This document shows positions 1 to 43,030 of a stretch of DNA of 64,000 nucleotides, one piece after another. Every line of letters starts with the position of its first letter. Within the stretch, counting starts at the first letter, position 1. The notes beneath the pieces are model-generated. The model made no database searches. It was not told where the DNA came from and worked only from the letters and a program-made list of their open reading frames with translations. The DNA comes from an uncultured SAR86 cluster bacterium. GTDB lineage: Bacteria; Pseudomonadota; Gammaproteobacteria; Magnimaribacterales; D2472. Made by a program: the position numbers and the translations under genes. Location of the stretch: positions 72,436 to 136,435 of the forward strand of contig CABXVU010000002.1 in the NCBI GenBank assembly GCA_902515775.1, in the 5' to 3' direction.

Positions 1-723
1 ATCAGGGAGTATCTTCCCGAAAAATTACAATCTAATACAATAATTTTATATTTTCATGGAGGAGGATATGTCGTTTCAAGTGTTAATACTCATGATGCAT
101 GGGTTAAATTGCTTTCATCTCACTTAAAGGCTAGGGTTTTTTCCCTAGAATACAGATTGGCACCGGAAAATAAATTTCCATTAGCCTTAGAAGACGCTAA
201 TTCAGCTATTGAATGGATCTCTAAAGAAAATAACATACCTATTTCTGAAATTAGTTTATGCGGAGACAGCGCTGGAGGCCACTTAGCAGCCTCTTTATCG
301 ACATATAGATCTCTTAATAACTTTGAGCTTCCTCATTCTCAATGTTTAATATATCCAATGACAGATCCCTTGTGTAATTCAAAATCACAAGTCGAATTTA
401 GCAAAGGCTTTTTTTTAGGTCAGAATTTTATGATTTGGTTTTGGAAGCAGCTTATGGCATCAGATAATAATCACGCTGATCCAACTTTTAACTTAACTAT
501 TGATCCAGATGCTGCACTGCCAAAGACATTGATTATAACGGTAGGATTTGATCCACTGTGTGATGAAGGCGAAGCTTATGCAAGGCAGATTAATAACTCA
601 GGAAATTATGTGGAGCAAATTCATTATCCTCATCTTATTCATGGTTTTGTTAATCTAACGGCTTTGAACTCAGCAAAAATTGCTGCGTTAGATATTATAA
701 AATCCTACAAAAATTTTATTTAA
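1..723 (+). CDS. Alpha/beta hydrolase, HSL-family esterase/lipase (5' truncated by window edge)
   Basis: Frame is open from base 1 (IREYLP...YFHGGGYV). HGGG oxyanion motif, GDSAGG nucleophile elbow, FDPLCDEG and HGF motifs. Confidence 0.9.
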   Translation: MREYLPEKLQSNTIILYFHGGGYVVSSVNTHDAWVKLLSSHLKARVFSLEYRLAPENKFPLALEDANSAIEWISKENNIPISEISLCGDSAGGHLAASLSTYRSLNNFELPHSQCLIYPMTDPLCNSKSQVEFSKGFFLGQNFMIWFWKQLMASDNNHADPTFNLTIDPDAALPKTLIITVGFDPLCDEGEAYARQINNSGNYVEQIHYPHLIHGFVNLTALNSAKIAALDIIKSYKNFI

Positions 724-39442: not shown

Positions 39443-39484
39443 AAAACCGGGGGCTTGCTTATATTAAGCCCTCGGTTTTTTTTT
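39443..39484 (+). terminator. Intrinsic terminator after the ZnuD-like receptor
   Basis: AAAACCGGGGGCTT-loop-AAGCCCTCGG followed by T9. Confidence 0.85.
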
Positions 39485-39520
39485 ATTTATAATTCACTAA
39501 AAAAATTTATATTTACTAAT

Positions 39521-42100
39521 ATGAAAAAAATTAATTGCATTTACATGGCTATTATTTTTTTTGGAACTATTACTCTTGTTGCAGAAGAAACTGAGGAGGT
39601 TATTGCAGTTGCCTCATACATAGAATCAAGCGAACTGGACGCATCACCTGTGGATATTATTTCTGCTGAGGAATTTAAAAATTTAAGAGTTTCAACCGTA
39701 GCTGAGTTAAGTAAATATCTTAGTATTGCTTCAGGCTCTCATTTTCAAACTAATGCCTTAGATGGAATAGATCAAGGCATGGCCACAATAACTTTAAGGG
39801 GCCTAGGTCATTCATCAACCTTGGTTCTAGTAAATAAAAAAAGACAGACTCATTCAGGAACACCTTCTGATGAAGGAGAAGGATACATTGACATAAATAT
39901 TATTCCTGAAATAGCGCTTGAAAGAATAGAAATTCTTAAAGATGGGGCAACATCATTATATGGATCTGATGCCATTGCAGGAGTAATTAACTTTCAAACA
40001 TATCAACAGTTTGACGGGATGCGTTTTTTATTAGGCTCTCAAAAGACTAGTAATTATGACCAAAGAGATAAAACTATAGGTGTCTTGTTTGGCGGCAAGT
40101 TTTGGGAGGGCAATTATGTATTAGCGCTAAGTTCCTTAAATAAATCACCACTAAATGCGGCAAGCATACCTAAATTCGCAGAACTTGGTCTAAGCGGCTT
40201 GGGCAACAGTTTCAAAATCACACAAGCTGACTCAGTTGCAACAGGAACATACGCAGGAAGTTATAGCAAAAATCAAACAATTCCAGATCCAAATTGCATA
40301 AAAAATGGAGGAGTAATTGCCGGTCCAAGATGCAAGTTCTTGTATGGTGAAAGATTCAACATAGTAAATGATGAAGACCACTTAAAAGGATATTTCCATT
40401 TTGTGAAATCTATTTTTGATATAGATTATTCGATGACTTTGATGACAGCCTCAATTGATGTCAATGATAATCCTCAATCTCCGTCCTATCCAGCTTTGTC
40501 GTATTTATCTAAAGAGATTTTTCCAGGTCAGGGAGGCAGTCCATTTAACGTGCCGGTTATTTGGTATGGCAGACCTTTAGGCTCTGCATTTCCATCACCA
40601 AATTCACCTAAAGCTATCACGCAATATCATTTCAGCAATACTTTAAATTTTAATATGGCCAAAGATTTAAATTTTGAATTATCTTTGACAGCAAGCGAAC
40701 ATGAGAATAAGCATCAGCGTCCAGATACAATAGAGTCAAGATTTGAAGATGCAATTTTAGGAAGAGGCGGTCCTGACGGCAATGAGCAATGGAATATATT
40801 TTTGCCATTAGAAAATTCAGTTACTCTGATAGATTACATCAAAGGTTCAGAGACCTCTCTTAAGATTGGTAGCTTGTTATCTTTGGATGGAATTCTTACT
40901 GGTAACAAAAATGGAATTAACTTTGCTTTTGGTTTTCAATTCAATGCAGAAGATTTAGAAATTAATTATTCTGAGACCAGCAGAGCTGAATTTGATCAAG
41001 ATGGAAAGTTAACCAAAGCTGCCGATTTATTATTCTTGGGCGGCGGTAAAAACGTTGACACTAGTAGAAATAAACAAGCTATTTTTTTTGAAACAAATAA
41101 GAATTTTGAAAATGTTTTAGATTTAATTTTATCTGGTCGCTATGAAAGACTTGATAATAACTCCTCATTCGATCCAAGAATTTCTTTTAAGTATTTAGCT
41201 TCAGAAAATTTCTTTTTACGAGGTTCATTTGGAACTTCTTTTACTGCTCCTTCGATGGCACAGATGTTTTCATCTGAGATTCAGCTTGGTAGCGTTAGAG
41301 ATATTAATGATTCTCCATTCGTACGTTTAGCATTATTAGGGAATCAATACTTAAAGCCTGCAACATCTGAAAATATTAATTTTGGTTTTAAATGGAATGT
41401 TACGAATGAATTAGATTTGATAATAGATTATTGGAAAATTGATTATAAAAATCGAATTGAAGTAGAAAGTCCTCAGGTATTACTAAATACTGATCCTTTT
41501 GCACCAAGTGTTACTAGAAATCAATTTGGAGAGTTAATAGCAGTAAGCACATCATATTTTAATGAAGAAAAAACTGAAGTTAGTGGCATTGATGCTGAAA
41601 TAAACTTTTTAAAAATTGTAGAAATTGGAGAATTCAGCTATTCCATTAAGGCAACACAATTGTCCGAATTCCTGACACCTGAAAATCAAGGTGGAGATAA
41701 TTTTAATATGGTTAACAGGGTTGGAAATTTTAACTTTGATGCTAATACTCATTCCTTGCCTAAATTGAGATTAAATTCATTCTTCAGCTGGACAATTAAT
41801 GATTTAAAGATTGGTATAAATTCAAGGTATGTTGATGGATATTCAAATGACCGTCAGATCCCTGCATCTGCTATAAGTTTAGGTTATACAAATTACGTTA
41901 AATCTTTTTTAGTACACGATTTTTCAATTATTAAGTCGTTTCAGCTTTCTTCTAGCGAAATAAAATTTGGCATGGGAATTATCAATGCTTTTGATAAGCA
42001 GGCACCTCTTTTATATGACGCTCCAGACTTTAGTTTTGATACAAGAGTGCATGATCCAAGAGGTCGATTAATTAATTTAACATTGGAACTTAATTTATAA
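39521..42100 (+). CDS. TonB-dependent receptor, substrate unknown
   Basis: Start moved to ATG 39521 (signal peptide). Plug motifs LRGLG--STLVLVN and ERIEILKDGATSLYGSDAIAGVIN; C-terminal DPRGR. Confidence 0.88.
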   Translation: MKKINCIYMAIIFFGTITLVAEETEEVIAVASYIESSELDASPVDIISAEEFKNLRVSTVAELSKYLSIASGSHFQTNALDGIDQGMATITLRGLGHSSTLVLVNKKRQTHSGTPSDEGEGYIDINIIPEIALERIEILKDGATSLYGSDAIAGVINFQTYQQFDGMRFLLGSQKTSNYDQRDKTIGVLFGGKFWEGNYVLALSSLNKSPLNAASIPKFAELGLSGLGNSFKITQADSVATGTYAGSYSKNQTIPDPNCIKNGGVIAGPRCKFLYGERFNIVNDEDHLKGYFHFVKSIFDIDYSMTLMTASIDVNDNPQSPSYPALSYLSKEIFPGQGGSPFNVPVIWYGRPLGSAFPSPNSPKAITQYHFSNTLNFNMAKDLNFELSLTASEHENKHQRPDTIESRFEDAILGRGGPDGNEQWNIFLPLENSVTLIDYIKGSETSLKIGSLLSLDGILTGNKNGINFAFGFQFNAEDLEINYSETSRAEFDQDGKLTKAADLLFLGGGKNVDTSRNKQAIFFETNKNFENVLDLILSGRYERLDNNSSFDPRISFKYLASENFFLRGSFGTSFTAPSMAQMFSSEIQLGSVRDINDSPFVRLALLGNQYLKPATSENINFGFKWNVTNELDLIIDYWKIDYKNRIEVESPQVLLNTDPFAPSVTRNQFGELIAVSTSYFNEEKTEVSGIDAEINFLKIVEIGEFSYSIKATQLSEFLTPENQGGDNFNMVNRVGNFNFDANTHSLPKLRLNSFFSWTINDLKIGINSRYVDGYSNDRQIPASAISLGYTNYVKSFLVHDFSIIKSFQLSSSEIKFGMGIINAFDKQAPLLYDAPDFSFDTRVHDPRGRLINLTLELNL

Positions 42101-42227
42101 AAAATCATGAAGGACCTAGCTAAAGGCCCTTCATTATTATCTAAGGGGGAAAAATGTACGCTAAGCATTTAATGAATTTGTATTCAACTTCTATATTTGG
42201 GGGAAAGAATGAATACTTAGCGTACAT
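42099..42227 (-). ncRNA. Putative novel sigma54-dependent small RNA (~125 nt)
   Basis: 16-bp 5' stem (42227-42212 with 42169-42154), two UUUCCCCC motifs, 11-bp terminator hairpin (42134-42107) plus U6. G-U wobbles work only on the minus strand. Confidence 0.7.
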
Positions 42228-42236
42228 ATAACTTAA

Positions 42237-42253
42237 TGCAATTTACGTGCCAA
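42237..42253 (-). promoter_or_regulatory. Sigma54 (-24/-12) promoter
   Basis: Minus strand reads TTGGCACGTAAATTGCA, matching the consensus TGGCAC-N5-TTGC. Confidence 0.8.
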
Positions 42254-42316
42254 TGATAAATTTTTTGAATGATATTCTATTTATTGTTATAAATAAAAGA
42301 TCAGAAATGAAGAAAT

Positions 42317-42832
42317 ATGAGAATTAACCTTAACCAAGATAGTGATAGTGTCATGACAGGCCCTGGTGAACACTATGCAAAGGAAATATCTGGAGCTGGG
42401 AATGCATTTGCATTAGCAATATATGAACATAGCAAGCTTCCATTAAGGGTCTTTGAAGCTGCTCGAATTGCAACGGCGATGATTAATGGTTGTATGATTT
42501 GTATGAATTGGCAGTCAAAAAGAGACGTGCATCAAATGGGTATTACTAAGGGCGTTATTGAAAATGGTGAAGCACCTAATAAAGACTTTTACTCTAATTT
42601 ACTCAGTGAGAATTATGTTCATTTATCTAAAAAGGAGTTATTGGCAGTCAAATTTGCTAAAGCTATGGGTGAAGACCCAAAAGGATTATCTAATGATGAA
42701 AAATTTTGGGTTGAGGTAAAGGATGTTTTTTCAGATGCAGAGATTACGGATCTAACCTATTGTATTGCTGGATGGATGGGTATGGGTAGAGTTGCTCATG
42801 TGCTGGGTTTAGATCAGAATTGTGAGATGTAA
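42317..42832 (+). CDS. Carboxymuconolactone decarboxylase / AhpD-like protein
   Basis: EAARIATAMINGCMIC (CxxC) and FSDAEITDLT. Confidence 0.75.
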   Translation: MRINLNQDSDSVMTGPGEHYAKEISGAGNAFALAIYEHSKLPLRVFEAARIATAMINGCMICMNWQSKRDVHQMGITKGVIENGEAPNKDFYSNLLSENYVHLSKKELLAVKFAKAMGEDPKGLSNDEKFWVEVKDVFSDAEITDLTYCIAGWMGMGRVAHVLGLDQNCEM

Positions 42833-42837
42833 AATTT

Positions 42838-42942
42838 ATGAAAAAAGAAAATAAGTTAGAGAAAGAATTCAAGTTTGCAAGATATATGTATGCTTTAATA
42901 TATCTCAGTCTGGTAATCCTTCTATTGATTATTTATTTGTAG
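42838..42942 (+). CDS. Small single-pass membrane protein (34 aa; absent from the ORF track)
   Basis: MKKENKLEKEFKFARYMYALIYLSLVILLLIIYL: charged N-terminus then one TM helix; 5 bp after the upstream stop. Confidence 0.5.
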   Translation: MKKENKLEKEFKFARYMYALIYLSLVILLLIIYL

Positions 42943-42954
42943 TTTTTTAGGAAA

Positions 42955-43030
<76 letters not shown>

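Follow-up and report, generated by a model that had tools for sequence, protein, structure and literature searches.

The intergenic region at 42101-42316 of the window, the 64-kb stretch of SAR86 genomic DNA analysed here, lies between two plus-strand open reading frames (ORFs), one for a TonB-dependent receptor and one of 171 aa. Its minus strand very probably carries a real, stand-alone small RNA (sRNA) gene, preceded by an exact sigma54 promoter motif. A DNA search of 60 relatives recovered full-length homologues in 18 genomes, all of the same genus, at 73–92% identity; homologue counts of 19 below comprise these and the window's own genome. An earlier sequence-only reading of this DNA had proposed an unannotated sRNA gene at this place, and the homologues of the 18 relatives uphold that proposal, with a conserved promoter and covarying stems. 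The features of the locus, from the promoter through the RNA to its surroundings, are:

42237..42253, minus strand: sigma54 promoter, T-TGGCAC(-24)-GTAAA-TTGCA(-12), an exact consensus match
42226..42227, minus strand: predicted transcription start, a purine (A in 11 homologues, G in 8)
42098..42227, minus strand: the whole small RNA, ~125–130 nt (fold z = -7.2; covariance model R1)
42212..42227, minus strand: 5' arm of stem P1, AUGUACGCUAAGUAUU (covariation)
42193..42211, minus strand: C-rich motif 1, CAUUCUUUCCCCCAAAUAU, in the apical loop of the short hairpin P2, with its C-run at 42199-42203
42173..42186, minus strand: inner hairpin P3, UGAAU-ACAA-AUUCA (5 pairs, 96.8% paired; G-U variants in 2 sequences)
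42154..42169, minus strand: 3' arm of stem P1, AAUGCUUAGCGUACAU (covariation)
42141..42154, minus strand: C-rich motif 2, UUUUUCCCCCUUAG, in a single-stranded linker, with its C-run at 42145-42149
42099..42134, minus strand: intrinsic terminator, an 11-bp hairpin at 42107-42134 and a U-tract at 42099-42104 (terminator scan)
39521..42100, plus strand: TonB-dependent receptor gene, the convergent neighbour (Pfam Plug and TonB barrel), given as context and not as a predicted target
42955..43030, minus strand: tRNA-Thr(UGU), upstream of the RNA gene (ARAGORN; context)

The promoter motif, TGGCACGTAAATTGCA at 42252-42237 (minus strand), is the window's sole exact match to TGGCAC-N5-TTGCW, against an expectation of 0.10 and with one or more matches in 9 of 100 shuffles; at one mismatch the motif is unremarkable, with 1 found and 1.73 expected. 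Its -24 and -12 boxes are invariant in 19/19 homologues (TTGGCA 100% and ATTGCAT 99% identical), while their surroundings drift, to 57% identity in the 24 nt upstream, 68% in the spacer and 65% in the 8 nt after the -12 box. Identity then climbs to 88–89%, starting at the first stem base. This base is the predicted +1, and it lies 9 nt (17/19) or 10 nt (2/19) past the GCA of the -12 box, as expected for sigma54. Judged from the alignment, invariant boxes in variable flanks are typical of a promoter with its own transcript, unlike a chance motif. A scan of 41800-42500 returned no sigma70-like promoter on the minus strand. We consider it probable that transcription of the sRNA depends on sigma54.

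The RNA downstream of this promoter is strongly structured. On the minus strand, 42098-42227 folds at -39.6 kcal/mol, which none of 200 shuffles reach, and the plus-strand fold is weaker (-36.2, z = -4.5). A 16-bp stem encloses two small hairpins and is followed by a linker, the 11-bp terminator hairpin and the U-tract. P1 has 14 modelled pairs, 98.9% paired over the 19 sequences, with compensatory changes in 4 pairs and one-sided (G-U) changes in 5; the sequence of P3 is nearly invariant. The sole terminator in a scan of 41800-42500 is the minus-strand hairpin 42134-42107 with the tail GATTTTTTAT (U6 after a 2-nt spacer). Five of its 11 pairs are GC, and 4 of 10 modelled pairs show compensatory changes.

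RNAalifold gives the same structure on the alignment of the 19 sequences (A1), with compensatory changes in 9 of 32 pairs and 96.2% of 608 pair cells paired. Column shuffles yield a mean of 2.3 ± 1.2 doubly changed pairs, and none of 500 reach the observed 9. When partners are slid out of register, pairing falls to 20–46%. Counted from the pair tables, the pair cells hold 42 G-U and 4 A-C combinations, and a G-U pair becomes a mismatch on the plus strand; at pair 13/64, for example, 15 sequences have U-G and 3 have C-G. This identifies the minus-strand RNA as the functional molecule. The sequence-only reading had described most of this: the exact minus-strand promoter, a start at 42226-42227 on the first stem base, where conservation indeed resumes, the 16-bp stem and the 11-bp hairpin with U6, and a G-U versus C-A argument for the strand. 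All of these features are in place, and the strand argument holds.

Both C-rich motifs of that reading are present, and they differ in how well they are kept. In motif 1, CCCC is invariant in 19/19 homologues, and C-run 1 has an unpaired probability of 0.93–1.00 in all of them. Motif 2 keeps five C in 14/19 and three C in 3/19, and 2/19 lack it; its C-run is unpaired with a probability of 0.84–1.00 in the 17 homologues that have it. The CAU beside each run, complementary to a start codon, is kept in 14/19 at motif 1 and in only 4/19 at motif 2. The description of the two motifs as equivalent units directed at GGGGG-spacer-AUG thus did not survive, as the second has an unconserved anti-AUG and is degraded or lost in 5/19.

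The family was found in one genus only. With covariance model R1 the RNA is detected in 18 of the 31 further genomes of the genus, in a single copy per genome; scores are 126–150 bits in 17 genomes and 71–75 bits in 2 divergent ones. Beyond the genus the model has no hit, either in nine further genera of the family (107 genomes) or in 20 further genera of the order (142 genomes); of the eight most complete members of the genus sampled alongside the order-level search, seven carry the RNA. Five genus genomes without a hit were inspected, and three of these also lack tRNA-Thr, so that the locus is unassembled there; the other two, G008 and G017, have the locus and are taken up below. Rfam 15 gives no match at gathering thresholds or at E values up to 10, the best sub-threshold match being a snoRNA model at E = 0.76, which agrees with the prior judgement that this is not Qrr, GlmY/Z, CrcZ or NrsZ. 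Scanning genome contigs for a 20-nt core pattern returned 5 matches in unrelated phyla, which we read as chance; the scan did not return the RNA's own genus and so says nothing about distribution. Literature searches on SAR86 small RNA and on marine metatranscriptomic psRNA returned no description of this RNA.

The window's own genome (G000, 78% complete) contains the machinery that such a promoter needs. It has rpoN (Sigma54_DBD, 150 bits) and a sole true enhancer-binding activator with REC, AAA+ and HTH_8 domains (Sigma54_activat, 244 bits), which follows an NtrB-like kinase. Five of five more complete relatives likewise have this activator alone, their remaining matches being weak and lying in a ~755-aa AAA+ protein. 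Seven exact sigma54 promoter matches occur in the genome, five of them outside long ORFs. These five precede:

a GSII-type glnA, then ntrBC
a Gcw_chp porin-like gene, PII, AmtB and a second PII
an unannotated 89-aa secreted protein
a 38-aa hydrophobic microprotein (promoter at G000:C8:32532-32517)
the present RNA gene

In five genomes of other genera the sigma54 motif occurs 32 times, against once for a reversed control, with the same kinds of genes downstream. Among 20 sigma54 promoters in three genomes of other genera we found no analogous C-rich sRNA; glnA, the Gcw_chp porin, the microprotein and other ORFs occupy these positions instead.

Several other sigma54 promoters and their genes were noted. 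The microprotein, MESKMFEYVNNLVKFCNNYPLWSAAFFICGFLIGEVYF, lies at 585-701 (minus strand) of locus L070, which is G000:C8:32384-32500. Sigma54-driven microproteins that resemble it, with the core W-x-x-A/C-F-F-I-C/S-G-F/Y, were seen in two other genera (G035 and G032), and G090 has a small ORF without this core behind a sigma54 promoter; loci L160, L167 and L176 belong to the same observation. The Gcw_chp-PII-AmtB-PII operon lies at G000:C3:86352-89164 (L054, L067, L068); its two PII genes flank amtB and differ in their ribosome-binding sites, with a G-run on the second. In three other genera (L102, L120 and G090:C1:1007541-1007556) a sigma54 motif stands immediately upstream of a TonB-dependent receptor gene, and some receptors there may be under direct sigma54 control. 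At L171 (G032:C1:455258-455573) a sigma54 promoter is followed by a ~110-nt stretch with long inverted repeats, which could be a structured leader, and then by an ORF with a signal peptide.

What drives the RNA promoter is suggested by elimination: because NtrC is the sole activator found, the RNA should depend on NtrC and on nitrogen limitation. The genome's only perfect matches to the NtrC consensus TGCAC-N7-GTGCA both stand at glnA, 8 and 60 nt upstream of its sigma54 promoter (G000:C1:103227-103318), which confirms the consensus. The product of this gene is a 326-aa GSII-type glutamine synthetase, and ntrB-ntrC follow. Apart from glnA, the other sigma54 promoters of the genome lack an NtrC box. 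We conjecture that NtrC activates promoters without a box only at high abundance or through weak sites that escape recognition; high abundance is conceivable because glnA-ntrBC is autoregulated from strong sites. On balance we lean towards control of the RNA gene by NtrC and nitrogen.

How might the RNA act? Hfq is found in 0/32 genomes of the genus (completeness 55–92%), and ProQ and CsrA were not found in the window's own genome; any action of the RNA would therefore be Hfq-independent. Of the partners that the sequence-only reading had looked to, rpoN and an enhancer-binding activator are in the genome, and Hfq is the one that was not found. The 3' end of 16S rRNA is the canonical CCUCC. 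A ribosome-binding site of the form GGGGG would need a G-U pair with the ribosome and would match CCCCC perfectly, whereas GGAGG would mismatch the RNA.

Start regions of this G-rich kind are concentrated on TonB-dependent receptor genes. In a crudely called set of 1176 ORFs, 11/17 receptor genes have GGGG within -18..-1, as against 65/1159 of the remaining genes (odds ratio 31, p = 3.6e-10); receptors with such start regions include those at G000:C16:21407, C4:31168, C8:56668 and C3:14922, and an 18th receptor, the neighbour of the RNA gene, lies outside this gene set and has no G-run. Duplex energies with seed 1, the C-run of motif 1 with its flanks, reach a median of -14.5 kcal/mol on receptors, compared with -7.3 on the remaining genes (p = 1.8e-7), and 7 of the 17 receptors rank among the top 25 of 1176 genes. 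We then kept the C-run and shuffled its flanks. On the G-run receptor start regions of the same genome, the real flanks of seed 1 reach -17.8 against -13.6 ± 1.3 for shuffled ones, with 0/150 as good. A second species (G010), taken with its own RNA and receptors, gives -18.5 against -15.1 ± 1.3, again with 0/150 as good. The test is marginal on receptors of genus g5, where 4–5% of shuffles do as well, and fails on those of the RNA-less genus g2, where 38–50% do (38% in G032).

Outside the receptors, glnK2 (C3:86690), the PII gene that ends the sigma54-driven amtB operon, ranks 6th of 1176 at -20.9 kcal/mol. Its start region GGGGUAAAAGAAUG pairs with CAUUCUUU..CCCC of the local RNA in G001, G009 and G010 at -23 to -25 kcal/mol, through 13 bp that include the AUG. 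By these duplex predictions it is the most suggestive remaining non-receptor candidate.

Combining these observations, we propose the following chain. NtrC would switch on the sigma54 promoter under nitrogen limitation and so produce a trans-acting sRNA of ~125–130 nt that stands alone. The long closing stem would present one CCCCC in the apical loop, and a second would lie in the linker before the terminator. With their U-rich 5' and A-rich 3' flanks, the C-runs would pair with initiation regions of the form (U-rich)-GGGG(G)-(A-rich) and block ribosome binding without Hfq. The predicted targets are G-run sites, which more than one in two TonB-dependent receptor genes carry, as do a few further genes, glnK2 among them, and the outcome would be less synthesis of large, abundant outer-membrane receptors when nitrogen is scarce. 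Anti-ribosome-binding-site pairing through the C-runs seems to us slightly better than an even bet, and the chain as a whole stands at an even chance. That TonB-dependent receptors are the main regulon is a tentative proposal. We offer as speculation, and think it doubtful, a broader version in which an NtrC-driven RNA tunes the entire TonB-receptor pool and GlnK2 to nitrogen, the G-run site serves as a shared address label and the promoter fires without a classical enhancer. The sequence-only reading had also suggested translational repression under possible nitrogen control. Exposed C-runs and predicted targets are consistent with the repression. As for nitrogen, NtrC as the sole activator and the sigma54 promoters at glnA and amtB/glnK favour it, and the failure to find an NtrC-type enhancer near the RNA gene does not.

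A number of observations weigh against this proposal. The 700 nt around the RNA promoter in the window's own genome contain no NtrC box (≤2 mismatches), and none of the 19 loci of ~3 kb has one within 1.5 kb, in a search for the NtrC consensus only, which an unusual site would escape. The DNA upstream of the promoter is unconserved and non-homologous, carries differing genes and aligns without a conserved block. The RNA gene appears dispensable and lineage-specific within one genus, because G008 and G017 lack it at an assembled syntenic site: in G008 only 38 nt separate the receptor gene from the 171-aa ORF, and in G017 the terminator hairpin alone is left. Motif 2 is lost in 2/19 homologues and weakened in 3/19, and the flanks of seed 2, in the linker, pair no better than shuffles (8% as good). 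The target ranking uses crude ORF calls and duplex energies without accessibility, and some of its top non-receptor matches, in miaA and in a hydrolase, are start-call artefacts at internal ATGs. Two RNA-less genera have G-run receptor sites just as often (9/18 and 9/17) as G010 (8/17); the sites therefore did not arise together with the RNA, which at most exploits an older feature. The choice of glnK2 was post hoc, with a roughly estimated ~5% chance that one of ~10 nitrogen genes falls in the top six. This gene has a canonical AGGAGG site in the sRNA-positive G024, a PII of its type was not detected in the sRNA-positive G007 and G006, and its G-run form is kept in G015, G002 and G003, where the RNA was not found (the G003 locus is unassembled).

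RNA libraries add to these difficulties. Fourteen runs from 8 studies share words with the stretch, the best share being 0.28, and four of them were mapped as low-depth assembled contigs, which carry neither strand, ends nor level. Three contigs from two studies cross the predicted +1 (42155-42414, 42193-42343 and 42146-42411) and extend into the 171-aa ORF; they fit other transcripts or DNA carry-over as well as they fit the sRNA. One 151-nt contig spans 42098-42249, and none of the contigs of the four mapped runs is a discrete sRNA-sized piece.

Other explanations account for parts of this evidence. Two of them accept the RNA and place its function or its origin elsewhere. A sigma54-dependent sRNA could act mainly by binding or titrating a protein, or through some other use of its inner domain, in place of pairing with ribosome-binding sites. 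At 88–89% identity, which takes in P3 and junctions with no obvious pairing role, the inner domain is indeed more conserved than two short seeds need, and the occurrence of G-run sites in RNA-less genera fits this account as well. We nevertheless think it quite unlikely, as no gene for Hfq, ProQ or CsrA turned up in the searches above, to our knowledge no C-run-binding regulator is known in Gammaproteobacteria, and the seed flanks fit start regions of their own genus better than shuffles do. Alternatively, the RNA is real and its sigma54 motif is not a working promoter, or not an NtrC-dependent one, with tRNA read-through and processing, or NtrC acting from solution, in its place. The absence of an enhancer, the contigs that bridge the predicted +1 and a same-strand tRNA only ~50 nt upstream in G030 would all follow. 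This too is unlikely given boxes that are invariant in 19/19 at a fixed spacing to the first conserved base despite a varying tRNA distance, the lack of a minus-strand sigma70-like promoter in the scanned interval, and the 32 to 1 excess of the motif over its reversed control in five related genomes.

The other alternatives deny that a minus-strand sRNA is the functional product. If the transcript were a leaderless mRNA for a tiny peptide (MYAKYSFF...), one would expect a start codon at +1, and AUG or GUG stands there in 19/19 homologues, with the first 8–10 codons alike in most. The frame then ends after 11 to at least 28 codons, at unrelated positions and through 1-nt indels, and conservation is just as high beyond those stops that come early; the peptide is changed (MCAGC, VCVKN) by the compensatory changes of the stem, and the start codon is buried in a 14–16 bp stem, so we hold this very improbable. 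Still less credit goes to a functional plus strand, whether as a 3' untranslated region or terminator of the receptor gene, as a leader of the 171-aa gene that contains small ORFs (GGGGG-N-ATG), or as a cis-antisense partner. Both motifs do read as a ribosome-binding site plus ATG on that strand, library contigs continue from the element's interior into the 171-aa ORF, and at 42077-42105 (plus strand) there is a weak sigma70-like site, of a kind expected 4.2 times by chance. On the plus strand, however, the 42 G-U cells become C-A mismatches, a 25-codon ORF loses its ATG in 15/19 homologues and the other ORF has 3 codons, about half of the homologues have other genes or a tRNA in place of the 171-aa gene, and the conserved sigma54 boxes face the other way. 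Small ORFs on either strand were ruled out, with neither frame nor ATG conserved. We regard as equally far-fetched an element that works as DNA, a recombination or attachment site at the end of integrase-less cassettes behind tRNA-Thr(UGU). It would explain the variable segment (0 to ~1 kb, with differing genes) between this tRNA and the element in 16/19 loci, and a partial copy of the tRNA 3' half close to the element in G031. The element is instead single-copy per genome, sits on the fixed side of the hot spot, is joined to the same receptor gene in 17/19 and has no adjoining tRNA-end repeat in the window; the cassette-end reading was rejected. Conserved promoter boxes, loop sequences and terminator are needless for a recombination site, and the G-U pattern is that of RNA.

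The surroundings of the gene have features of their own. The same flank, with the receptor gene, lies 3' of the RNA gene in 17/19 homologues, and the sRNA U-tract directly abuts the stop codon of this convergent gene. The listed receptor ORF has 881 aa from a TTG at 39455, and its true start is probably the ATG at 39521, because 39455-39520 contains a terminator-like hairpin (CCGGGGGC...GCCCTCGG and a T-run), which we assign to the preceding receptor gene; we recognised no ribosome-binding site ahead of ATG 39521. On the other side, the 171-aa ORF starts at 42317 and has no Pfam match. tRNA-Thr(UGU) lies on the same strand as the RNA gene and upstream of it in 16/19 loci, at ~50 nt to ~1 kb. 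The stretch between tRNA and promoter (42254-43030 in the window; loci L004-L021) is variable, shrinking to ~50 nt in G030, and holds the 171-aa ORF in 9 genomes and different genes in others. Near the sRNA of G031 is a partial copy of the tRNA 3' half, with the full tRNA ~1 kb distant. From this pattern the segment behind tRNA-Thr(UGU) looks like an integrase-less insertion hot spot.

Genome-streamlined marine bacteria have few regulators, so each one counts, and a conserved sigma54-driven sRNA is a sizeable addition to the known repertoire of this genus. TonB-dependent receptors are the genus's main uptake route for dissolved organic matter. If the predicted link to them is true, the RNA would tie nitrogen status to carbon uptake in a concrete and testable way in this abundant, uncultured lineage of the ocean, coupling the uptake of organic carbon to the supply of nitrogen post-transcriptionally. 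Regulation by C-rich seeds without Hfq would gain a gammaproteobacterial example, and there would possibly be a natural sigma54 promoter that works without a recognisable enhancer.

Sigma54-driven sRNA genes have precedents, and in their regulation these come nearest to the present RNA. Qrr, GlmY/GlmZ and CrcZ are stand-alone sRNA genes with -24/-12 promoters and one dedicated activator each. Qrr is an Hfq-dependent base-pairer, GlmY a decoy and CrcZ an Hfq sponge, and their activator sites are identifiable. The present RNA has no covariance-model match to them, and such activator sites were not found at its gene. OmrA/OmrB of enterobacteria repress several TonB-dependent receptor mRNAs at their start regions; they depend on EnvZ/OmpR and Hfq, and their 5' seed is not C-rich, whereas receptor targeting is only predicted for the present RNA. 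NrsZ is sigma54-dependent and processed from repeated units in a host that contains Hfq. In Pseudomonas aeruginosa it is described as a stand-alone sRNA induced under nitrogen limitation via NtrB/C (PMC4253122). The present RNA differs from it in having no Rfam match and no NtrC site found at its gene.

SAR86 itself has an abundant non-coding RNA, placed by Dupont et al. 2012 in a glycolysis/pentose-phosphate region and common to two distant SAR86 lineages (PMC3358033). The present RNA, at a TonB-receptor/tRNA-Thr locus and found in one genus only, is probably distinct from it, given the differing context and distribution. In mode of action the likenesses lie with C-rich seeds. RsaE/RoxS and other Rsa sRNAs of Firmicutes, and 6C of Mycobacterium, are described as pairing through C-rich loops or single strands with G-rich ribosome-binding sites, free of a chaperone (PMC2790875, PMC5419742, PMC6486639). 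These belong to other phyla, use other promoters and are non-homologous to the present RNA, which has the two or more exposed C-runs of this class, the second in 17/19 homologues only. The mechanistically closest described case is sX13 of Xanthomonas, which works without Hfq and represses, through CCCC/CCCCC loops, mRNAs that carry G-rich motifs close to the start codon; it measures ~115 nt and, like the present RNA, is gammaproteobacterial and strongly structured, with exposed C-runs (PMC3771888). In that account sX13 has three C-loops and is not described as sigma54-driven, and no sequence- or Rfam-level relation was found between it and the present RNA, which has one loop motif and one linker motif, a long closing stem, a sigma54 promoter and a predicted action. 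Together, these comparisons make the present RNA a new family of a known functional kind, driven by sigma54 and equipped with C-rich seeds like those of sX13 and RoxS.

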